Source of the DNA: a virus
Lineage: Duplodnaviria > Heunggongvirae > Uroviricota > Caudoviricetes
DNA length: 64,000 nt
Direction: 5' to 3' (one strand)
Virus record (IMG/VR): IMGVR_UViG_2939521961_000018
Shown here one piece after another: positions 2,860 through 16,909 of the stretch (the stretch's first letter is position 1; every line of letters starts with the position of its first letter). The notes below the pieces were generated by a model. It worked only from the letters and a program-made list of their open reading frames with translations. It made no database searches and was not told the DNA's origin. Position numbers and translations under genes: made by a program.

Positions 2860-3162
2860 ATGAGCAGAAAAACCCAACGTTACTCTAAAGAGTTCAAAGC
2901 CGAAGCTGTCAGAACGGTTCTTGAAAATCAACTTTCGATCAGTGAAGGCGCTTCCCGATTATCTCTTCCTGAAGGCACTTTAGGACAATGGGTTACCGCC
3001 GCCAGAAAAGGGCTCGGTACTCCTGGTTCCCGCACGGTGGCTGAACTGGAATCTGAAATTCTGCAACTGCGTAAGGCGTTAAATGAAGCTCGCCTTGAGC
3101 GAGATATATTAAAAAAAGCAACAGCGTATTTTGCACAGGAGTCGCTGAAAAATACGCGTTAA
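2860..3162 (+). CDS. IS600 OrfA (HTH, leucine-zipper transposase N-terminal part)
   Basis: MSRKTQRYSKEFKAEAVRTVLEN typical IS3-family OrfA. Confidence 0.9.
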   Translation: MSRKTQRYSKEFKAEAVRTVLENQLSISEGASRLSLPEGTLGQWVTAARKGLGTPGSRTVAELESEILQLRKALNEARLERDILKKATAYFAQESLKNTR

Positions 3163-3197
3163 TCGAACAATGGCGACAACAATTTCCCATTGAAGCG

Positions 3198-4016
3198 ATG
3201 TGTCAGGTATTTGGTGTATCCAGGAGCGGTTATTACAACTGGGTACAGCATGAACCCTCAGACAGAAAACAAAGTGATGAGCGGCTAAAACTGGAGATTA
3301 AGGTGGCACATATCCGCACTCGCGAAACATATGGAACCCGGCGGCTCCAGACGGAGCTGGCAGAGAATGGCATCATCGTTGGTCGTGACCGACTGGCACG
3401 TCTTCGTAAGGAGCTAAGGCTACGCTGTAAGCAGAAACGCAAGTTCAGAGCGACTACGAACTCGAACCACAATCTGCCAGTTGCGCCAAATCTGCTGAAC
3501 CAGACGTTCGCTCCTACAGCACCAAATCAGGTCTGGGTGGCGGACCTGACGTATGTTGCCACACAGGAGGGATGGTTGTACCTCGCTGGCATCAAAGATG
3601 TTTATACGTGCGAAATTGTCGGCTACGCCATGGGAGAGCGCATGACAAAAGAGCTGACAGGTAAAGCTCTGTTTATGGCGCTCAGGAGCCAGCGCCCACC
3701 TGCCGGGCTAATCCACCACTCTGATCGAGGTTCACAGTACTGCGCATACGATTACCGGGTCATACAGGAGCAGTTTGGTCTGAAAACATCAATGTCGCGT
3801 AAAGGTAACTGTTACGACAACGCTCCGATGGAAAGCTTCTGGGGAACGCTGAAAAATGAGAGCCTGAGCCACTATCGTTTTAATAACCGGGATGAAGCCA
3901 TCTCAGTAATACGGGAATACATTGAGATTTTCTACAATCGTCAGCGTCGTCACTCTCGTCTGGGGAATATCTCCCCGGCAGCCTTCAGGGAAAAATATCA
4001 TCAGATGGCTGCTTAA
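3198..4016 (+). CDS. IS600 OrfB (DDE transposase catalytic part; made as OrfAB fusion by -1 frameshift)
   Basis: DDE integrase core (HSDRGSQY, CYDNAPMESFWGTLK); -1 frame relative to orfA. Confidence 0.9.
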   Translation: MCQVFGVSRSGYYNWVQHEPSDRKQSDERLKLEIKVAHIRTRETYGTRRLQTELAENGIIVGRDRLARLRKELRLRCKQKRKFRATTNSNHNLPVAPNLLNQTFAPTAPNQVWVADLTYVATQEGWLYLAGIKDVYTCEIVGYAMGERMTKELTGKALFMALRSQRPPAGLIHHSDRGSQYCAYDYRVIQEQFGLKTSMSRKGNCYDNAPMESFWGTLKNESLSHYRFNNRDEAISVIREYIEIFYNRQRRHSRLGNISPAAFREKYHQMAA

Positions 4017-4247: not shown

Positions 4248-7094
4248 TCAGAAAGTCACGTTCAGTGTGGCCTGACCGTTATAACCTTCAGCGCTGCTGC
4301 CGCTGACACTGTGGGCATAACCGGCCTGAACGCCCAGGGTGATATTTTCCCGGACACGGGCTTCCAGTCCGGCCTGCAGGTCCAGTGACGTGCCATTCCG
4401 GGACGGTGAGAACGTCATGTTACTGCCGGCTGCGGCTGTACCCATGCTCATGTCTCCCCGGGAGCTGAAGGTGCGGATAACAGAAGGCTGTACCCACCAG
4501 TTCACCGGCAATTCACGCACACTGTGTTTGGCACTGTCGCGCAGGGTGTCACGGGATGAGGTGCCTTTACCAAAGTTCATATCGTTGTGGCTGCCCAGAC
4601 GGAAGCCGGCACGCACATGTTGTGCACTGCCATGCCCGAACTTCACATAACCGGCGTTATCCTGGCCGTCATCCAGGGAGAGTCCCTGCCAGGTGTACTG
4701 CAGTTGTGGCTCCAGCATCAGATTGTCAGTGATACTGAAGGGCAGACCGGTTTCCAGTGAGCCCAGCCAGCCCCAGCCCCGGGCGCGGAAGTCGTTATTG
4801 TCCGATGATGCTTTCATGCTGTGGCGGGTTCCCTGTGCCACAATGTCAGCCCACAGGCCGGAGGATGTGTGTACCAGATTCAGGTATCCGCCCAGACTGC
4901 CGGCATCATCCCGGACCGTGCCGGCGCGGGAGCCGTCATCATCCTTAACATCAACGGAAGAATGGCCTGCAGCACCATACACCCCTGTCGTCAGAGACAT
5001 ACCGGCAACCTCTGTTCTGAGCAGGTCACCCTCCAGACGGACGAAGCCATAGCTGCCGCTGCTTTCCGGCGTGGCCCCACGGGCAATACCGCCGTTGTTA
5101 TCGTGCCCGAGATGACCGCCCTGAATGCTGAGACGGACGCTGTTATTTTCACCGTTTACACCGGTCTGATGGCTGCGGGAGCCAGCCAGAATCCGGTCAT
5201 AGTCCATTGCCTGTGTCAGCATGGAGGCATACAGGGGGACTTCAGCACGATAAGCATTTTCACTGCGCAGGTACCAGTCTTCATCGCTGTCACGGTTCAG
5301 GGTGTAGTTAAAGGCGCCGGCCTGAAGCGGGCGGCTCAGGGCAAACGCACCTTCTTCTGTGGTGGCACCATTCTGTGCATCCACAACCCGGATACCCTGT
5401 CCGGTGGTTGCCACCCCGAGGTTACTGTTTCCGACATTTGTGAACGCAAGCCAGGTTTTGCCGGTTGCCTGACCACCATTAATCACCAGCTGGTCTGAGG
5501 TATTACTGCCATCAAGGCGAACACGCATATTGATGGTGCCGCCCTGACCAGTGAGGTTGGTGGTGGTCAGTTTATGGAACGTTACCGGGGAGTCGCCTTT
5601 TGCAACAGCACGGCTCAGCACGGCATCCTGTGTCGTCTGATTATCAAAGTGAATCTCTCCTGCGTTAACAATATCGCCGGTACTGACCACATCACCATTC
5701 AGTACCATACTGGCGCCTTTACTGAGCTGTGTTCTGCCACTCAGACTTCCCCCGGCAGCCAGCGTCAGTGTTCCACGATGTCCGACAGTGGTGTTGCCTG
5801 CCTGTCCCCCGGCATTAACCGTAAAGCTGCCGCCATTTTCCAGTAGCAGGCCGCTGGCCTGACCGGATATGCCATCAATACTGAACTTACCGCTGGCATT
5901 GGTCCCCTCAACAGTGGCACCACTGTCTGCTATCAGGGCACCACCGGATGTCATGGTGACATCTGTTGCCTTACCACCGGCAGACACTGCCAGGGTACCG
6001 CCGTCATCCACCCGTGTTTTCTGCGCTGAATGGCCTTCCAGTACATCCAGGCGACCGCCGGACTCCAGAACAACGCCGTCAGCCTTACCGTTTTCCACCG
6101 TGAAATTGCCCAGACGGTTGCTGCCAAGAACCGTTGCCGCAGTACTGGTGACCAGTGCTCCACCCTGTTTCAGGGTGACATGTGTGGCGGTACCACCGGC
6201 GTTCACCTGCAGTTTGCCTTTCTGGTTAACGGTGGTGAAATCCGCCAGACCACCTTCCTTGATAATCTGCCAGCCGTCACTGTTTACAACAGTGCCAGAC
6301 GCCGTACCGCCGTTGTGCACATACTGGTACCCCCCATTCAGCGTGGTATCCAGTGCGTGACCATGTACAGTCTGGTCGCCGCCGGCATAAACCACAGTGG
6401 TATTTGCCGTTCCTTCAGCAGCCACAATCTGACGACCATTTTTATTGATGGTGGTGCGTACGGCATCTCCGTAGACGTTCTGCCCGGTATCACCATTTTC
6501 TGCATCCGGTCCCCCTTCCGCGCCGGTATTCACAACCGTGTCGGTTGCCATTGCGCCGGATTTGACGGCCTGCCAGCCCTTCTCATTAATGACGGTAACC
6601 GTTGCAATCCCGCCTTCATGTACCCACTGCTCACCGCCGTTCAGAGTGGTGTTCACTGCCTGCCCCTGAAGGCTCTGTCCGCCTCCGGCACTGATAACCG
6701 TGTCTGAAACGCTTCCTCCGGCATTCACTCTCTGAAGACCACCACCGGTGACAGTAGTGTTGTTGGCGATACCGCCATTTTGTATCCATTGTCCGCCGGT
6801 ATTGGCCTCGTTATCCGGCCCATACTCCAGACCGGTACTGATGGTCATTCCGTTGGCCGTACCGAAGACAATCTGGTTGTCATGATTTGTCAGTGTTCCG
6901 CCGTTCACGGTTTCTCCCGCCTGTACAACCGTGTCAGCAGCCAGTGCCGGGACTGATGTGACAGCAGCAAGAGACAGCGCAACCGCCACACCGGCGCGTT
7001 TTCCCCGTGAGCGGGCCAGTTCGGAGGCCACCACCAGGGTGCCCGTAATGTGATTCCATACCAGCCTGTAGCTGGTGTTCAGATGTCGTTTCAT
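4248..7094 (-). CDS. flu: Antigen 43-type self-associating autotransporter adhesin
   Basis: Extended signal peptide MKRHLNTSYRLVWNHITGTLVVASELARS, long Gly/Thr/Asn-rich beta-helix repeats, C-terminal beta-barrel ending in F; ORF-track start moved 25 codons in to the MKRH ATG, which has an AAGGA RBS. Confidence 0.85.
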   Translation of the reverse strand: MKRHLNTSYRLVWNHITGTLVVASELARSRGKRAGVAVALSLAAVTSVPALAADTVVQAGETVNGGTLTNHDNQIVFGTANGMTISTGLEYGPDNEANTGGQWIQNGGIANNTTVTGGGLQRVNAGGSVSDTVISAGGGQSLQGQAVNTTLNGGEQWVHEGGIATVTVINEKGWQAVKSGAMATDTVVNTGAEGGPDAENGDTGQNVYGDAVRTTINKNGRQIVAAEGTANTTVVYAGGDQTVHGHALDTTLNGGYQYVHNGGTASGTVVNSDGWQIIKEGGLADFTTVNQKGKLQVNAGGTATHVTLKQGGALVTSTAATVLGSNRLGNFTVENGKADGVVLESGGRLDVLEGHSAQKTRVDDGGTLAVSAGGKATDVTMTSGGALIADSGATVEGTNASGKFSIDGISGQASGLLLENGGSFTVNAGGQAGNTTVGHRGTLTLAAGGSLSGRTQLSKGASMVLNGDVVSTGDIVNAGEIHFDNQTTQDAVLSRAVAKGDSPVTFHKLTTTNLTGQGGTINMRVRLDGSNTSDQLVINGGQATGKTWLAFTNVGNSNLGVATTGQGIRVVDAQNGATTEEGAFALSRPLQAGAFNYTLNRDSDEDWYLRSENAYRAEVPLYASMLTQAMDYDRILAGSRSHQTGVNGENNSVRLSIQGGHLGHDNNGGIARGATPESSGSYGFVRLEGDLLRTEVAGMSLTTGVYGAAGHSSVDVKDDDGSRAGTVRDDAGSLGGYLNLVHTSSGLWADIVAQGTRHSMKASSDNNDFRARGWGWLGSLETGLPFSITDNLMLEPQLQYTWQGLSLDDGQDNAGYVKFGHGSAQHVRAGFRLGSHNDMNFGKGTSSRDTLRDSAKHSVRELPVNWWVQPSVIRTFSSRGDMSMGTAAAGSNMTFSPSRNGTSLDLQAGLEARVRENITLGVQAGYAHSVSGSSAEGYNGQATLNVTF

Positions 7095-8666: not shown

Positions 8667-9665
8667 ATGGATATGATACCTTCATATGAAAGCATGTATT
8701 TGACTTTAAGAGGGATACCAACTGACTCAATTGGAGGTGAGGACATTTACTTTATACATGATCCTCAAGGTGGATGGTACCCGAACAGAGGGAATCATCT
8801 TTATGCGATCGATGCATTATGCGTTAATATTCATGATGCTCTAGCTAATAGCATTTTTGATGGATTAGAAAACTACCACAAGTTCCTTTATATGGCCCCT
8901 GAGTTTTTATCAACAGCAGGTTTGAACTCTGAATCCGTAGTTTCAAAAGAAACATTTGTTTTATTTATTGATAAATTCAAAGGGCATACTGACGTAAATA
9001 AAGGCCTTTACCTTTTTGATTGCTGTAAAATTGTAAGTAGCATACAGGAATGCAGCAAGGAAGTGTTGCAACTACAAGGGGAGTTTTATTACACGTTGAA
9101 TTTTGAACCCTTGTTTTTCCCTAACATTGAAGAGGAGGACGGTATAAGATATGTTACATCTCCAGTCGTGACTAAGCTCTTTGCATTACTTGGATTTATT
9201 TATATCCGCATGTACAGTTTGCTCGACTACATAACAAAACTAGCTATAGAAATTGAAAATTTAAAAACACAGTTCTCTTCTTATGTTAAACTCACATCCA
9301 AGAACTCTCAATATGGTGATAAAAAGAAAGTGAGCTTAAATAATTATAAAGGATCTTTGTTTGAGCAATGCCCATTTATTAATGAAATAGAAAGTGTACG
9401 AAACCATATCATACATGATGGTCTTTTAGACGATATGCCAAAAGCATACAGAGTTATCCGGAACAACGCATGTATTGAAAAATATTTGCTTTTCCCTGAC
9501 CAAACATCAGAAGGACGTTTTGAATCGTATAAAAGTAGAAATTTATTTTATGGTGGTGATACCAAAATAAATAATCGACTCCCAGAGATTACCAATCAAT
9601 TTCAAGAGCGACTTTTGCTTACTTTGGGTAAAATATTTGATAAATTAAATGAAAAACAGAGTTAG
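8667..9665 (+). CDS. Hypothetical protein with HEPN-like Rx4H motif (candidate Abi-type effector)
   Basis: 332-aa AT-rich ORF; motif ESVRNHIIHDG; opposite strand to the island backbone. Confidence 0.5.
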   Translation: MDMIPSYESMYLTLRGIPTDSIGGEDIYFIHDPQGGWYPNRGNHLYAIDALCVNIHDALANSIFDGLENYHKFLYMAPEFLSTAGLNSESVVSKETFVLFIDKFKGHTDVNKGLYLFDCCKIVSSIQECSKEVLQLQGEFYYTLNFEPLFFPNIEEEDGIRYVTSPVVTKLFALLGFIYIRMYSLLDYITKLAIEIENLKTQFSSYVKLTSKNSQYGDKKKVSLNNYKGSLFEQCPFINEIESVRNHIIHDGLLDDMPKAYRVIRNNACIEKYLLFPDQTSEGRFESYKSRNLFYGGDTKINNRLPEITNQFQERLLLTLGKIFDKLNEKQS

Positions 9666-9801: not shown

Positions 9802-10656
9802 ATGAATACAAATATCGGTATGAGATATATAGACGTAGTGGCAAATGGTAATGCCGGAGAGTTTTATTTTGCATACTGGATATCAAGTAATTTCATCTGG
9901 CCTTGCCGTATTCTTGATATTGATATGGGGTTAGATGCTCAAGTTGAAGTTTATGATGACCAAAATCATTCAACTGGAATGTTTATTGGTGTGCAGGTGA
10001 AAACAACCGCGACTACGCTAGAAGAAAACCCTAATGTTTCTGTACCCATGAAAAATATAGCTTATTGGGAAAGCATAAATGATCCAGTTGTTATTATTCG
10101 GACCTGTCTTAATAACAATTCAAAAGAGCCTAGCTTGTACTGGAAGCATCTTCCGAAAAGTGAATTAAGAAAATATTTAAATAGAGCCGAGGAAAAAGGT
10201 TATGAAACAGTAACCATAATGTTCGAGGAGGATAAGAACTCATTGCTGAAAACCGATAAGTCAGCATGGCTAAAGATATTTTTGAGCGATTATGATAAGG
10301 AAATCATTGAAAGTGTAGTAGGGATTAAAAGTAAACTAGATAAGTTAGGTAAATACTTAAAAGATAATTATATTGATGAGCAGTTTATTTGTGGGTTTCC
10401 AAGTGACGATTTCCCATCAGAACTGAACGATACTTTGAATAAATATGATGAATTAGCAGTTGCTGTTAAAGTAAACCCTCGACTAAAATATCTTTCGAAT
10501 GAAGTAAAATCAACTATTGATTCTTACAATTCATATATTAACCTTATACTGCTCTTTTTCAAAGAGGGATGGAGCACTGGGTCGATTAGAAATTCCGATT
10601 TTGATATTTCATCGACAATTAACCCTGCACTTCACAAAATTATCAATAGTTATTAA
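9802..10656 (+). CDS. Hypothetical protein, N-terminal restriction-endonuclease-like region (possibly DUF4365)
   Basis: 284-aa AT-rich ORF; N-terminal GNAGEFYFAYW...ILDIDMGLDAQVEV...GVQVK resembles a PD-(D/E)xK-type core; assignment from memory and uncertain. Confidence 0.5.
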   Translation: MNTNIGMRYIDVVANGNAGEFYFAYWISSNFIWPCRILDIDMGLDAQVEVYDDQNHSTGMFIGVQVKTTATTLEENPNVSVPMKNIAYWESINDPVVIIRTCLNNNSKEPSLYWKHLPKSELRKYLNRAEEKGYETVTIMFEEDKNSLLKTDKSAWLKIFLSDYDKEIIESVVGIKSKLDKLGKYLKDNYIDEQFICGFPSDDFPSELNDTLNKYDELAVAVKVNPRLKYLSNEVKSTIDSYNSYINLILLFFKEGWSTGSIRNSDFDISSTINPALHKIINSY

Positions 10657-10956
10657 CCCAATGGCATAGGGTTCACCATCGTTCAGTGAGCCCTAAGTTT
10701 AGATGTTAGGGAATGCTATGAATTTATTTCACAAGTACTCCGTAGGCTAATATGACATTTCTCTTCATCTTCGACACCATTTTCAACTAAAGTGATAATG
10801 AAAATTTATTATCATTTATTAAAGGGCGAAGTTCCGCTGTTCGCTCAAAGCCGCCGGTAACCTACTGTGAACTAATGAAGATATATAGACAGCCATTCTG
10901 CATACCTGGACAGAATTACTATTCTGTCCAGCCTAGAGATAAAAGCATACGAAGTA

Positions 10957-11451
10957 TCAGGGGGCAGTAGGCTCAAGCCAGGCGGTTACGTCACCGGCAC
11001 CGTTGATGAAGTCGAAAAGGATGATCAACTGCTCCACCGCGTAACAGGCATGGTCTAACTCACGCTCAAATGTGCGAATAAGTGCAGCTCCGTCTAAAAG
11101 CTGCTGTGTGACCGCAAAATTAGCAAGGAACTCGTGAGCCATCGTATTGCGCTGATCTTTGAATGACTTCAGGTAAGCATTATAGTCCGTGCGCAGCCCC
11201 AGCTTTTTAAGCTCAACGCGGGTCTGGCCTAATGTCAGCCTCTCTAATTTTTCTTCATCAAGGTTGTATCCCGGAAAAGAAACAAGAATTTTTTTTAGGC
11301 CAAACTCTAGCAACTGTGCCTTGCCCATAAACAGACCGAACCGTTCGATGAAGGGTTTACCCTCGTATATTTTGAGCCCAGCAAAAATCTTATCCCGAAG
11401 TTCCTGGCCACCCAGCGTATCAATATCCATGCGCGTTTCCTTTTTAGACAT
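10957..11451 (-). CDS. Hypothetical protein with Rx4H motif (possible HEPN-type)
   Basis: 164-aa ORF; motif DQRNTMAHEF; a palindrome follows the stop. Confidence 0.45.
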   Translation of the reverse strand: MSKKETRMDIDTLGGQELRDKIFAGLKIYEGKPFIERFGLFMGKAQLLEFGLKKILVSFPGYNLDEEKLERLTLGQTRVELKKLGLRTDYNAYLKSFKDQRNTMAHEFLANFAVTQQLLDGAALIRTFERELDHACYAVEQLIILFDFINGAGDVTAWLEPTAP

Positions 11452-11547
11452 TATTGGTAATGAAGTAACTTATTGAAGTTAGATGCACACATTATGTAAA
11501 GCTATTGGTAGTTGTGGACAGAAAACTCTTCTGTCCAGGTACAGGGA

Positions 11548-11868
11548 TTAATATGTAGTGAGGGGGGAACCGTACTCATCTATCACCCAGGAGGCCACAA
11601 CAAGGACTGATTGATCGTCGTCGTCAACAAAAATGAACCCATGCTTTTCATCTGCGCCATTCGTGAAGACTCGGGGATCATTTTTAAGTGAAACCCAGGA
11701 GGCGGTGTCTGGATCATGCCCTTTGTTACGGATGTTTCGAAGTGCCGTTCTGGCAGATTCCCACTGTCTCATGATGTGTTGATTTGATTCCACCTCATGC
11801 AACAAATACTGCTTCAAACGAGAAATGGAAAGGAGCTGATTTGGAGGTCTTCTGTAGACGTACATCAT
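11548..11868 (-). CDS. Hypothetical protein
   Basis: 106-aa ORF directly upstream of and co-directional with the 164-aa ORF; no recognisable motif. Confidence 0.35.
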   Translation of the reverse strand: MMYVYRRPPNQLLSISRLKQYLLHEVESNQHIMRQWESARTALRNIRNKGHDPDTASWVSLKNDPRVFTNGADEKHGFIFVDDDDQSVLVVASWVIDEYGSPLTTY

Positions 11869-12210
11869 GTTCCCGTATCTCTTTGTTATCTGGCAAAGGT
11901 GCCAGTTTCGATATTGGGAAGGACCGGAAGGTTTTCAATAGCCGATAGACATAAATTGCAGAACTTCCAGGCGGAACGTGAACGGAGCGGGTAATCAATG
12001 CCCGCTCCGTACCAGGAGCGTAAGTTGCTAACAACAGTCTGAGTTGATCAGCGGGGAGCAGGTCACTGGATTAGTTGAAAACTGGAACCTATTAGTTCCA
12101 GCCATTAATTAATAGCTTTCGAATTATTCTTGAAAAACAATCAAAAATAGTTGCCAAAACCAAATCAATTAGGACATATTAAACCCATGGTTTTTATTTG
12201 GAATTAGAGA

Positions 12211-13029
12211 ATGGAAATTCATGTTCCCATGGAAATGGTAGTAAGTGATGGAGAAGAAAGATTCACAGAGCTTGATTTTTACTATGGGTCAAAAGCACTT
12301 GAAGGCACGTCAGAGATAGTTACAGTCCTCACTAATACGATTCTAAATCGCGAAGTAGTTACTAAAATCCCATCAATCGAAGGCATAACCGCATCTTTTC
12401 GTACCAGTTATGAAGGGTCGTTTAGACAACGTTTCATGCTCAAGATCACAGGTGAGGAACAACGTAGAAACTATGGCGCAATCGGAGAGGGGGCATTTCT
12501 AGATGTTATGTCTTATTATCTTACAAGACCATTATTAACACCTTATAATTTCACATATAAAAGGGCTGCTAGAATTGTTAAAGAACTTGAGTCAGATTAT
12601 AGTTCATTAATGAAGAGGCTTTATGGCCCACTATTGAAGCTTCATAAGCCCATAGAAGAACAAAATTATACTGTTGAGCTGAAACGGAGAAGGACAAATC
12701 TTGCTCGGTATGATCACACGACCCTTGAAAATCTAATTGTTGAACGTGCCGATGATGAAAGGATCATTATTGAAGCTTCTATTACAAGATTTAATCGGCT
12801 AACGGGGACGGGAAGGCTCATTCTTGAGGAAGATTCTGAGTCTGTAAGTTTTGAACCTTCATATCTTTGGAGAGATTTTCCAGCAGATCAAAAACGCTGG
12901 CTATCTAGAAACTTAGACGTCAACACAGATAATGGTGATTTTACTCGTGTACGGCTAGAGGTGACATCAATCAGAAACTTTCTTGGTGTCATTAAAAAAT
13001 ATAGTCTTCACCGAGTTATAACGGATTGA
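12211..13029 (+). CDS. Hypothetical cytoplasmic protein, first gene of a coupled pair
   Basis: 272-aa ORF; stop is 1 nt before the start of the next gene. Confidence 0.5.
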   Translation: MEIHVPMEMVVSDGEERFTELDFYYGSKALEGTSEIVTVLTNTILNREVVTKIPSIEGITASFRTSYEGSFRQRFMLKITGEEQRRNYGAIGEGAFLDVMSYYLTRPLLTPYNFTYKRAARIVKELESDYSSLMKRLYGPLLKLHKPIEEQNYTVELKRRRTNLARYDHTTLENLIVERADDERIIIEASITRFNRLTGTGRLILEEDSESVSFEPSYLWRDFPADQKRWLSRNLDVNTDNGDFTRVRLEVTSIRNFLGVIKKYSLHRVITD

Positions 13030-13030
13030 T

Positions 13031-13765
13031 ATGATAAAGTATGTTGCCTTTTTAGTTATATCAGTTACATGGTTGATTTATTTCTTCAATTTCGATCCGT
13101 TAAATGGTTTTCCAATTGATAAGTCTGAATGGGGAACATTTGGTGATTTCGTTGGCGGCGTAACCAACCCCATTTTGACATTTTTTACAATGATTATGTT
13201 AATTAAATCAATAAACTTACAAAAAGAGGCTAACATCAGCATTATTAAACAAAATTTGCACATGCATGAGGTTTCAGAAAGACAAAAAGAAATTGATGAC
13301 TTGCGCTCTTTTGAATCATCGTTTTATAGCCTCGCTGAAGTATCTAGAAGAGAGTTTGATGCCCTCAGAATAACTGGTAGAAATAAAAAAAACTACTCAG
13401 CCTCAGATGCGGTAACCTATTTAGAGAGTTACATGATAAACTCATGTAAGTCAAAAAATGCAGAAGAATTATGCAAACAATTTTCTATTTTTGATAATGA
13501 ATCCTCTATGGCTCTCTTTTCTGCGGTTCGTAGTTTTTATATTCTATTTAAATTCACAAATGAATCTTGCCCAGAAAACCACAAAGAAAGATATTACGAA
13601 ATAGCAAATTATACTATGCCTGTGAAATTTCTTCATTTGGTATGTTTGGCATACGTATTTAGTGATTGGAAAATAATAAAAGACTTTGAAAGTTTCGGTT
13701 TTTTCAATCGCAAAGGATTAGATAAATACATCATGGATTTTATGGATGTAAAGAACTTTTATTAG
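13031..13765 (+). CDS. Membrane protein, 2 N-terminal TM helices; resembles AbiC-like putative abortive-infection proteins
   Basis: TM1 YVAFLVISVTWLIYFF, then WGTFGDFVGGVTNPILTFFTMIMLIKSINLQK (TM2); AT-rich; family resemblance from memory. Confidence 0.5.
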   Translation: MIKYVAFLVISVTWLIYFFNFDPLNGFPIDKSEWGTFGDFVGGVTNPILTFFTMIMLIKSINLQKEANISIIKQNLHMHEVSERQKEIDDLRSFESSFYSLAEVSRREFDALRITGRNKKNYSASDAVTYLESYMINSCKSKNAEELCKQFSIFDNESSMALFSAVRSFYILFKFTNESCPENHKERYYEIANYTMPVKFLHLVCLAYVFSDWKIIKDFESFGFFNRKGLDKYIMDFMDVKNFY

Positions 13766-14168: not shown

Positions 14169-15308
14169 GTAAGCGTGCAGCAAGAACCGTATTGACGGGG
14201 ATGTGTTATTCAGTCGGCAGTGCTACGCGCCAGGGGAGCAGTTCGCCGACCCGGTTTATCGGCCAGTCGGCTATGACGTCAAGGACATAGCGGAGGTAGC
14301 TTTCTGGCTCCACTCCGTTCAGTTTGCACGTCCCGATCAGGCTGTACAGCAGCGCTCCCCGCTCTCCTCCATGATCCGAACCGAAGAACAGGTAGTTTTT
14401 GCGGCCCAGACTGACCATCCGCAACGCATTTTCAGCGATGTTATTGTCCGCCTCAGCCCAGCCATCATCTGCATAGTACGTCAGCGCCGGCCACTGGTTC
14501 AGGGCGTATGCGAACGCTTTCGCCAGTTCTGAGTGTCGCGACAGGGTTTTCATCTTTTCACGCAGCCAGCTTTCCAGGGATTTCAGCAGCGGTTTCGTTT
14601 TCAACTGACGTTCGGCAAGGCGCTGCTCCGCCGTCATTCCCCTTATCTCTGCCTCGATGGCGTACAGTTCGCCGATCCGTTTCAGCGCTTCCTCCGTCAG
14701 GGCTGACGGGGTGCGAACGTGCACATCGTGGATTTTACGGCGGGCGTGAGCCCAACAGGCGGCTTCCGTTATCCGGCCATCCCGGTACAGCTCGTTGAAC
14801 CCGGCGTATGCATCCGCCTGCAGTACACCACTGAACCCCGCAAGATGGGTCTGCGGATGGATGCCTTTTCTGTCCGGGCTGTAAGCGAACAACACCGCCG
14901 GCGCCAGCGTTGACCCGGCGTTACGGTCGTCACGAACGTAGGTCCATAACCGCCCGGTCTTCGTTTTCTTATTGCCTGGCAACAGCACCGGGACAGGCGT
15001 GTCATCAGCATGGAGCTTACCGTCAGTCAGCACATAGTCCTGAAGCGCTTCTTCCAGCGGTGACAGTAGCCGGCAGCATGCATCCACCCAGCCCGACAGC
15101 AGTGAACGACTCAGCTCCACGCCCTGGCGGCCGTACATTTCAGACTGGCGGTACAGCGGGGTGTGCTCTGCATACTTTGAGATCAGCACGCGGGCCAGCA
15201 GCCCCGGTCCTGCGATACCCCGCTCGATGGGCCGTGAAGGCGCGGGGGCCTGCACGATGGCATCGCACTGAGTACAGGCATGCTTTTCACGTACAGTCCG
15301 GATAACCG
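14169..15308 (-). mobile_element. IS66-family element remnant (one end plus 3' two-thirds of tnpC)
   Basis: Terminal sequence GTAAGCGTGCAGCAAGAACCGTATTGA at 14169 resembles the end of the adjacent complete copy; tnpC lacks ~170 N-terminal codons. Confidence 0.6.
14206..15255 (-). pseudogene. IS66-family transposase TnpC, truncated (C-terminal 349 aa)
   Basis: Aligns with residues ~175-523 of the complete TnpC at 15338-16909 ([26 protein letters not shown]). Confidence 0.7.
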
Positions 15309-15337
15309 TAAGCGACTCGTCAGAACCGTATTGATAT

Positions 15338-16909
15338 TTACTGAGAGCTCAGATCAACTTTCCAGGGCAACAGATCGCGTACCCGGTTTGCCGGCCAGTC
15401 CTGGATATGTTCAATGACGTAACGCAGCCACTTTTCTGGCTCCACATTGTTCAGACGGCATGTGCCGATCAGCGAGTACAACACCGCCGCATGTTCACCA
15501 CCGCTGTCGGAACCCGCGAACATCCAGTTTTTCCGGCCTACGGCCACTCCCCGTAAGGCGTTCTCTGCGATGTTGTTGTCGATTTCCACCCAGCCATTAC
15601 TGCAGTACACGTTCAGTGCATCCCACTGTTTCAGCAGGTATGCGAACGCTTTTGCCGTATCTGAGTGACGCGACAGTGTTTTCATCTGTTGCTGTATCCA
15701 GTCATACAGTGACTGCATCAGTGGCGCGGCTCTGGCTTTTCTTGCCGCCAGACGCTGTTCTGCTGAACAGCCCCGGACCTCTGCCTCGATGGCATACAGT
15801 TCACCGATACGCTGCAGGGCTTCCGTGGTGATGTAGGTGGGCGCTCTTGCATGCACATCGTGGATTTTTCTCCGGGCATGAGCCATACACGCGGCTTCCG
15901 TTATTCTGCCGGATTCGTATAACGCCCGGTAACCACCGTAAGCATCGGCCTGAAGCACACCGCTGTAACCGGCCAGGTGATTTTGTGGATGGATACCTTT
16001 CCGGTCCGGACTGTACGCGAACCAGACCGCCGGGGGCATCTGTGAACCGGCGTTACGGTCATCACGGACGTAGACCCACAGCCGGGCTGTCCGGGTTTTA
16101 CCGCTGCCCGGCTCCTGGACCGGGACGGGGATATCATCAGCATGGACTTTACCGGGCATCAGCACATACTGGCGCAGGACGTCATACAGCGGCTCCAGCA
16201 GTTCAGCAACAGCACCTGTCCAGCGCCCCAGTGTGGCACGGCTCAGCTCCACTCCCTGACGACGGTATATTTCTGACTGGCGGTATAACGGCAGATGGTC
16301 TGCATATTTCCCGGTGACAACATGGGCCAGAAGCCCCGCTCCGGCATAACTGCGTGCAATGGGTTTTGAAGGTACTGGTGCCTGCACGATATGGTCGCAC
16401 CGGCAACAGGCCTGTTTCGGACGTTGTGTTTCGATAACCTTAAAGGCGCTGCTGATAAGCTCCAGTTGCTCTGACACATCACATCCCAGAGAACTGAGTT
16501 CACCACCACAGGCAGGACAGCATTCCTCTTCCGGCCGGATAACCCGGGTTTCACGGGGAAGTGAGGCCGGTAACGGTTTACGGGCTGAAGACTGGCGCAG
16601 GGCGGATGGCAGTACCGGGTCATATTGCTCACCCAGCGTTTCCGCCATTTCTTCCTGAAGTGCGCTGATTCGCTCCTGTGCTTCCTGTATCTGCCGTTCG
16701 GTTTTTGCACGAAGTTTTTCTGAGCTTTTACCGAACTGCATACGTTGCAGTTTCGCAACCAGCGCCTTCAGCCGGTTGATTTCGGAAGCATAAGCCGCCA
16801 CCCGCTGTGAGAGCAGGCGGTTGTATTCAGCCATCTGGCGGATGGTGTCCTGTTGCGTCTGCAACAGTGCCCGCAGGCGGGCGTTCTCATGAGCAAGTGA
16901 GGTGTCCAT
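15338..16909 (-). CDS. IS66-family transposase TnpC
   Basis: 523 aa with N-terminal coiled coil and conserved IS66 core. Confidence 0.85.

Follow-up and report, generated by a model that had tools for sequence, protein, structure and literature searches.

The same palindrome stands behind two consecutive genes in IMG/VR record IMGVR_UViG_2939521961_000018, a stretch of 64,000 nucleotides that is classified among the Caudoviricetes and is referred to here, at its full length, as the window. What is a repeated palindrome doing at the borders of these genes? The window corresponds to a chromosomal island of the CP4-44 type in Escherichia coli O26, O103 and O111, with a GTPase gene, antirestriction genes, yeeU and a degraded integrase, and the stretch is present in 82 of 5426 complete E. 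coli genomes. A first-pass annotation had offered three explanations for the palindromes, namely RNA-stabilising hairpins resembling repetitive extragenic palindromic (REP) elements, binding sites for a regulator, or recombination sites delimiting a gene cassette.

Of these explanations, sequence comparison favours the last. The palindromes belong to a family of 24-bp sites which form arrays with a shared orientation, homology between loci breaks off at the sites, and a primary copy lies beside a tyrosine recombinase gene on plasmids. In our reading, to which we assign a probability of about 0.7, the palindromes are 24-bp core recombination sites which bound two gene cassettes and belong to an integron-like or pdif-like system tied to a ResD-like plasmid recombinase.

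The two palindromes in the window

The palindrome TGGACAGAA-N5/6-TTCTGTCCA is found at 10907-10930 and at 11515-11537, with no further copy in the window. The pattern GGACAGAA-N3-7-TTCTGTCC matches the window at 10908-10929 and 11516-11536 only and is absent from all of 100 dinucleotide-preserving shuffles of the window, which confirms the repetition reported by the first-pass annotation. On the plus strand, copy 1 reads CTGGACAGAAT-TACT-ATTCTGTCCAG (10906-10931) with perfect arms of 11 bp and a loop of 4 nt; alternatively, it can be read as arms of 9 bp around a 6-nt spacer. Copy 2, TGGACAGAA-AACTC-TTCTGTCCA (11515-11537), has arms of 9 bp and a spacer of 5 nt. Both lie just downstream of stop codons, as had been noticed: copy 1 is located 26 nt past the stop of a minus-strand open reading frame (ORF) of 164 amino acids (aa; 10957-11451), and copy 2 10 nt past the stop of a 106-aa minus-strand ORF (11548-11868). 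No T-run follows either copy on either strand and a terminator scan reports neither of them, in agreement with the earlier view that they are not classical intrinsic terminators. The stems comprise 9-11 bp with approximately 45% G+C. RNA folding of 51-nt stretches gave -19 kcal/mol (z -4.0) for copy 1 and -12.5 kcal/mol (z -2.9) for copy 2.

The search for further copies proposed with the first observation was extended to 5426 complete E. coli genomes, using a 36-nt query around copy 1. It matched 83 genomes, at one place each (median one per genome).

A family of 24-bp sites in same-strand arrays

From 32 distinct sites we derived the 24-bp family consensus TGGACATACAGGTAATTCTGTCCA. Conservation is good at the TGGACA end, in the central GT and in the right arm ATTCTGTCCA(G); the left arm is variable. 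The ends of the site, TGGACA/TGTCCA, are inverted, and the usual central 'GT' gives it a polarity. Complementarity is limited to the outer 6 bp in many family members, and several primary sites, i.e. those ahead of a recombinase gene, have no fold (0 to -5 kcal/mol) and are still conserved in sequence. Since many members are unable to form hairpins, an RNA hairpin is not the feature they share. Moreover, substitutions at the sites that follow homologues of the 157-aa protein (the 164-aa ORF with its RefSeq start) are mixed and give no strand-biased G-U signal. Together with the matrix scores, the non-folding members and the lack of strand bias point to a sequence-specific DNA site as the common denominator.

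The copies in the window were scored with a matrix trained only on sites from other loci outside the TGGACAGAA class. Copy 1, hereafter S2 (10907-10930, minus strand, TGGACAGAATAGTAATTCTGTCCA), forms the downstream boundary of the 157-aa cassette and scores 29.8 bits on the minus strand versus 24.6 bits on the plus strand. Copy 2, hereafter S1 (11515-11537, minus strand, TGGACAGAAGAGTT-TTCTGTCCA), forms the boundary between the 106-aa and the 157-aa cassettes; it is a 23-bp form, one central base short, and scores 26.9 bits as a 23-mer. The third-best 24-mer in the window after S2 and S1 is a decayed copy, S0 (11946-11969, minus strand, TGGAAGTTCTGCAATTTATGTCTA, 10.5 bits), located upstream of the 106-aa gene; all three copies are on one strand. 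In Enterobacter hormaechei the positional homologue of S0 is a well-preserved TGGCCGTTCATGTAATTCTGTCCA upstream of a 103-aa gene. As an independent matrix ranks S0 next after S1 and S2, at the expected position and on the expected strand, we count it in favour of cassettes.

Fetched loci were scanned for arrays at a cut-off of at least 16 bits, at which shuffled controls gave 2 hits in 758 kb. Same-strand arrays of 2-6 sites were found in 14 loci, all sites of a locus being on one strand. Six sites are found on an E. coli plasmid contig (L154), five each on a Pantoea plasmid, a Leclercia plasmid and a metagenome contig (L175), four on a Salmonella plasmid (L185), three in Cronobacter and two in E. 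hormaechei. Plasmid pZ1832-2 carries four sites within 2.4 kb before its recombinase gene at 15207-16022. At a stringent threshold no site occurs elsewhere in its 36 kb; at the looser threshold that was used for the fourth site, one extra match appears, at 5954 on the other strand.

Each interval between sites contains one or two genes, on either strand. Among the cassette genes are an HEPN-like gene, its frequent partner of ~255 aa, GNAT-like, RelB/DinJ-like and dGTPase genes as well as small unknown genes, and the cargo is mostly of defence or toxin-antitoxin type. Genes for dGTP triphosphohydrolase, a known type of anti-phage gene, stand directly before a site on a Klebsiella IncFII plasmid (L184, 2212-3526) and in Providencia (L076). 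On the Klebsiella plasmid the gene lies between two sites and thus appears to be a cassette of the same system.

Broader searches delimit the family. Scanning genome contigs with TGGACAGAA-N3-7-TTCTGTCCA matched at least 120 loci; among the matches listed, nearly all are unrelated terminator-like palindromes from many phyla, and the pattern is too generic. It still yielded the first plasmid leads (L073, L076, L106). In viral contigs the palindrome pattern retrieved 12 unrelated terminators of low-G+C phages, two more specific patterns had no match, and the Klebsiella-type site was found in two Klebsiella prophage contigs. A BLAST search with the hairpin against phage genomes gave no match.

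Homology between loci ends at the sites

Eight other genera were included in a comparison of the flanks of genes for homologues of the 157-aa protein. Behind the gene, the palindrome recurs in Enterobacter asburiae, Cronobacter, Leclercia, Pantoea, Yersinia, Klebsiella and Raoultella. From stop codon to palindrome, a distance of 25-35 nt, these loci diverge, and the sequence beyond the palindrome is unrelated. The window and the metagenome contig L175 share 631 bp at 88.9% identity, reaching from inside S1 to 13 nt past S2, and outside this stretch their flanks are unrelated. The unit from site to site with the 157-aa gene measures 608 bp in both. Between L175 and the Pantoea plasmid (L150), three blocks are conserved, their edges lie exactly at sites, and different cassettes stand between them.

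Homologous loci were also to be compared for presence or absence of the intervening gene, and E. hormaechei provides this comparison. Here, the interval between two sites holds just a 103-aa homologue of the 106-aa gene, and the 157-aa gene is absent. The 103-aa gene is followed by a degenerate 24-bp site, TGAGCAGAAGTGTTTTTCTGTCCA, which is homologous to S1, and after this downstream site comes the same tail that S2 has in the window. Relative to the E. hormaechei locus, the window thus has exactly the 157-aa gene and one site more.

On a larger scale, a two-cassette module of 1170 bp (10841-12010, minus strand) is common to the window and E. asburiae at 95.8% identity; it stands in a different context there and its flanks are unmatched. 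Its upstream end is a perfect 10-bp inverted repeat, ACGGAGCGGG-N9-CCCGCTCCGT (11982-12010, minus strand), which folds with -21 kcal/mol (z -3.5) and at which the similarity to E. asburiae begins. At the other end, S2 is followed by a conserved tail (10841-10905, minus strand ..GTATGCAGAATGGCTG..GGCGGCTTTGAGCGA). In related E. coli islands, two other cargo contexts have the tail as well, there behind a half-site that is rearranged. Seven E. coli genomes keep the tail together with the outer arm of S2 (10906-10916), and in these genomes similarity stops at query position 148, corresponding to window position 10917, one base into the centre of S2. On L154 only the left arm of the site is left after the 157-aa gene, and similarity breaks at the centre of the site.

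Two further observations concern this region. In the E. coli islands L170 and L171, whose cargo is of TIR/GIY-YIG or SIR2/NACHT type, the position of S2 carries a rearranged TGGACTGACCCCACGCCCGTAGACAAATTCTGTCCA, which looks like a site with an insertion or like a fusion of two half-sites. In addition, the motif GGC(A/G)GCTTTGAGCGA (window 10841-10866) recurs after sites in unrelated cargo contexts, with copies near 5001-5085 in L170/L171, in E. hormaechei and, inverted, at 3757-3780 on the Klebsiella plasmid L184.

A ResD-like recombinase gene follows the primary site

The generic contig scan revealed the palindrome on enterobacterial plasmids, where it adjoins a DnaA-box-like sequence. In eight plasmids (one from Symbiopectobacterium, two from Salmonella and five E. 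coli plasmids of IncX type) a primary site lies ~290-370 bp upstream of a gene for a ResD-like tyrosine recombinase. The recombinase has ~270 aa; its clade is 65-72% identical internally and 42-49% identical to ResD of the F plasmid, and its scores against Xer and integron-integrase models are far below the cut-offs. In an alignment of the primary loci, the sequence left of the site is unrelated, and the site and its right-hand leader are conserved. Related plasmids from Salmonella and E. coli differ in array content and share a conserved site, leader and recombinase. Within the leader, a second element, CTGGACGAAA.AGCA.ATTCGGAAAAAATGTCCA (TGGAC-N22-GTCCA), is located between primary site and recombinase gene (L185 ~3665-3700; L191 ~15075-15110). 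This fits a recombinase protein that recognises such half-sites, and the element may be an accessory site or one that is bound for autoregulation.

The recombinase-site region is matched in 421 of the 5426 E. coli genomes (~8%), nearly always on plasmids, and 183 genomes hold most of the query. Among the matches listed, the alignments of the pZ1832-2 query start at positions 12-18, and the primary site starts at position 18. Among more than 150 E. coli plasmids, the primary site is where similarity sets in. Strain MBT-5 contains both the chromosomal module and an IncX plasmid that encodes the recombinase.

In published work, the rfsF/ResD region has been described as an exchange or insertion point for gene sets in IncI1 and IncR plasmids (PMC8004404, PMC9412624). 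The colistin resistance gene mcr-10 is always found beside a plasmid 'xerC' tyrosine recombinase gene, and mobility by site-specific recombination has been proposed for it (PMC9431528).

We tentatively suggest, at slightly less than even odds, that IncX-type and related plasmids carry a cassette platform composed of a ResD-like recombinase, the primary 24-bp site ahead of its gene, and cassette arrays with one or two genes per cassette, bounded by same-strand copies of the site. The cassettes, with defence, toxin-antitoxin and unknown genes, would also seed chromosomal islands and prophages, and the whole would amount to cassette exchange of an integron-like or pdif-like kind in E. coli and related bacteria. 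No description of such a platform was found in the searchable literature. A full-text search for the site sequence returned primers and microRNAs only; since such sites are often printed only in figures, an earlier description may exist. The spread of small defence and toxin-antitoxin genes among plasmids, prophages and islands is largely unexplained, and most of these genes have no transposase of their own. If the suggestion holds true, a short site and a very common plasmid recombinase would provide a concrete mechanism for their movement, and cassette boundaries and new cargo genes could be recognised by the site as a simple sequence signature. Plasmid multimer-resolution systems would then serve gene capture in addition to maintenance. 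Resistance genes of clinical importance are carried by the same plasmid families (IncX, IncF).

Proposed mechanism and alternative explanations

On the plasmids, the primary copy lies ahead of the recombinase gene, and upstream of it further same-strand copies partition the DNA into modules with one or two genes. In the window, the three same-strand copies S0 (decayed), S1 and S2 delimit the 106-aa and the 157-aa cassettes. These sites and arrays with their common orientation, the breakpoints at the sites and the link of the primary site to the recombinase gene are observed; binding, catalysis, circular intermediates and the identity of the acting recombinase are inferred as follows. The recombinase would bind both arms of a site. 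Recombination of two direct copies would excise a cassette as a circle with one site, and recombination of the circle with a resident site would insert it elsewhere. Since the window encodes no such recombinase, the enzyme would have to be supplied in trans by a co-resident plasmid.

Several observations weigh against this scheme. No recombinase of the ResD-like kind was found in the 64-kb window. The arrays of Leclercia and L154 adjoin a true F-type ResD gene (86-88% identical to F ResD), and F-type ResD has a known site which differs from the 24-bp site, so that the pairing of enzyme and site rests only on their position in IncX-type plasmids. Some arrays have no recombinase in their vicinity. 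S1 and S2 differ in their spacers, which in S1 is one base shorter and reads GAGTT as against TAGTAA in S2. A tyrosine recombinase would not readily recombine such sites, and they may therefore be relics at this locus. The matrix does not settle the orientation of S1 (26.9 versus 26.6 bits). Some breakpoints are 20-50 nt off a site. In Yersinia and Klebsiella a single site lies in or beside a prophage, the Klebsiella copy beside the prophage integrase gene, and from this it follows that some transfers took other routes. Finally, palindromes as unusually perfect as these just past stop codons make an additional RNA role possible; S1 and S2 may also fold in mRNA.

A role in RNA, additional or alternative, is the main competitor of the recombination sites; as the alternative we consider it unlikely. 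The palindromes would form hairpins at the 3' ends of both mRNAs, protect them from exonucleases or pause transcription, much like REP elements or like terminators without a U-tract, and be conserved by travelling with the genes. This would suit the distance of 10-26 nt from the stop codons, the stable folds of -19 and -12.5 kcal/mol, the presence of the site after the 157-aa gene in seven genera, and a compensatory change from C-G to G-C in the outermost pair in Raoultella. Yet there is no U-tract after either copy, the wider family is complementary in its outer 6 bp only, several conserved primary sites do not fold, and substitutions have no G-U bias on the sense strand. Moreover, sites flank genes of either orientation and also precede the recombinase gene, and hairpins leave both the same-strand arrays and the cassette-precise breakpoints unexplained. 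A search of Rfam at a permissive threshold gave no credible match. As a common denominator, the REP-like RNA-stabilising hairpins of the first-pass annotation are not supported, because the motif is not dispersed and most family members have complementary ends of only 6 bp or do not fold at all. Least probable of all, to the point of being negligible, is a dispersed REP-like repeat or a chance palindrome unconnected with the genes. Palindromes of the form TGGACAGAA..TTCTGTCCA do occur in many unrelated phyla as terminator-like hairpins, but these unrelated matches have different flanks in AT-rich or T-run contexts, and none of the 100 shuffles of the window contains the palindrome. For E. coli the single place per genome in 83 of 5426 genomes refutes a common dispersed REP element, which had been named as the finding that would speak against any association with the genes. 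Hairpin ends of the IS200/IS605 type and RAYT/REP elements were likewise rejected: we found no Y1 transposase and no REP consensus, and the breakpoints lie at the centre of the site, not beside the hairpin.

The sites could also be true hot spots of recombination or rearrangement on which another agent acts, for instance XerCD, the island integrase, or template switching and short-homology recombination provoked by the palindrome without a dedicated enzyme. This would account for the window and several arrays that lack an IncX-type recombinase, and the 10-6-10 layout resembles Xer sites. In addition, a distant homologue of the 157-aa protein on an Acinetobacter plasmid adjoins a pdif-like XerD/XerC site, so the gene family also travels with Xer sites. 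Nevertheless, we judge another agent to be as improbable as the RNA hairpins, since the site is unlike the consensus sequences of dif, cer and pdif, and a conserved, polar, non-palindromic stretch of 24 bp, fixed before one recombinase clade, points to a specific protein partner. Still much less probable is control of the 157-aa gene by a dimeric transcription factor with the palindromes as its operators. S1 does overlap a -35-like hexamer ahead of this gene, and ResD of the F plasmid is reported to act also as a repressor; in most loci, however, the site is found only downstream of the 157-aa gene, and operators do not explain arrays and breakpoints. From the proposal of a binding site for a regulator there remains a site that is probably bound by the recombinase, but no regulator gene co-occurs or travels with the sites. 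We thus return to recombination sites that bound cassettes as the preferred explanation.

Cargo genes and neighbouring genes

The cargo of the S1-S2 cassette is the 157-aa gene (10957-11430, minus strand); its RefSeq start is at 11430, and an ATG at 11451 would give 164 aa. The protein has ~70 homologues. An RNxxAH motif is invariant in 18 diverse homologues, and the protein matches HEPN_RiboL-PSP, Abi_2 and DUF3644 weakly (best E = 0.003); on account of both, we treat it as HEPN-like. A promoter-like element for this gene (11491-11518, minus strand) was found by consensus scan with 9/12 matches and is a pattern match only; its -35 hexamer (TCCACA) overlaps the right arm of S1. The S0-S1 cassette carries the 106-aa gene (11548-11868, minus strand), which has no family match. 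Its ORF is usually unannotated in RefSeq, but homologues in Enterobacter are conserved with 61-93% identity, which shows it to be a real gene. Neither protein has a match in Pfam, NCBIfam or PADLOC. A profile search against solved structures and tblastn of the 157-aa protein against phages gave no match either.

The 157-aa HEPN-like gene usually has the ~255-aa gene as its partner (loci L008, L003, L150, L166 and L010). The two genes diverge in Yersinia, Pantoea and Cronobacter, they converge in Salmonella, and a ~350-aa protein takes the place of the partner in Klebsiella and Raoultella. Such pairing suggests a two-gene system in which the 106-aa gene replaces the partner in the window.

Beyond the cassettes, the window encodes on the plus strand a 332-aa protein (8667-9665) with an RNHIIH motif and a weak match to HEPN_Cthe2314, and a 284-aa DUF4365 protein (9802-10656) which matches the PADLOC model 'Aga REase'. 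The two genes resemble a defence pair, so far uncharacterised, within the island. Adjacent genes for proteins of 272 aa (12211-13029, plus strand) and 244 aa (13031-13765, plus strand) are divergent from the cassette module. Both proteins have no match in Pfam, NCBIfam or PADLOC, and the 244-aa protein looks membrane-associated.

A separate repeat, cgaacagTGGACAGAAT..ATTCTGTCCActgttcg, was encountered in Arthrobacter (loci L049, L050, L052-L054, L064, L097, L120, L126 and L143). It is present in several species, and one genome has two copies; the repeat has no relation to the enterobacterial sites and may be a dispersed element.

Comparison with known systems

With REP elements and terminators, the palindromes in the window share a stable stem-loop just past a stop codon. 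They differ in that they have no U-tract, no dispersal and no REP consensus, and the sequence of the family is conserved even where it cannot fold.

The D protein of the F plasmid (ResD) resolves multimers at rfsF. On the eight plasmids, the primary 24-bp site holds the place of rfsF upstream of a ResD-family gene and its operon and is followed by partly similar sequence; for the copies in the window this does not apply, as the window encodes no such recombinase. At the equivalent position, F and R64 carry GGAGATCCG-N14-CGGATCTTCC, and their rfsF sequence, GGAGATCCGAAAACCCCAAGTTACGGATCTTCC, differs from the 24-bp site. An identity of the site with F-type rfsF was rejected on the F and R64 sequences. 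Moreover, one rfsF per plasmid is described, whereas the 24-bp site is present in multiple same-strand copies in cassette arrays and also in chromosomal islands and prophages without a recombinase.

The layout of the site, about 9-6-9 to 10-6-10, is similar to that of the Xer sites dif, cer and pdif (11-6-11), but its arms are unlike the Xer arm consensus GGTGCGCATAA / TTATGTTAAAT. The likeness to the pdif sites of Acinetobacter plasmids goes further: inverted arms surround a 6-bp centre, one arm is conserved and one variable, and the sites bound small modules of toxin-antitoxin or defence genes. The site sequence and the presumed enzyme are different, and direct repeats make up the arrays described here, whereas pdif modules have sites in inverted orientation at their ends. 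The distant homologue mentioned above (39% identical to the 157-aa protein) is encoded on an Acinetobacter haemolyticus plasmid (L152, NZ_CP031989.1; gene at locus 2914-3399). The gene is followed by ATTAACATAA-TACACC-TTATGCGAAGT and then by a classical terminator. This sequence is clearly unlike the 24-bp site, and we take it to be a pdif (XerD/XerC) site; the same gene family would hence ride a different site-specific module system in Acinetobacter.

Integrons are resembled in the tyrosine recombinase gene with an adjacent primary site, in short, mostly one-gene cassettes bounded by related sites, and in the recurrence of the same cassette in different arrays. Unlike in integrons, the recombinase is not IntI (38-54 bits versus integron-integrase cut-offs of 265-435 bits), and the 24-bp sites have neither the GTTRRRY core nor the long imperfect attC palindrome (R''-L''...L'-R'). 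Cassette genes lie on either strand here, and some seem to have promoters of their own. What the 24-bp sites have in common with cassette arrays in general are sites of the same orientation between short gene modules, and shared cassettes in different arrays with homology that ends at the sites.

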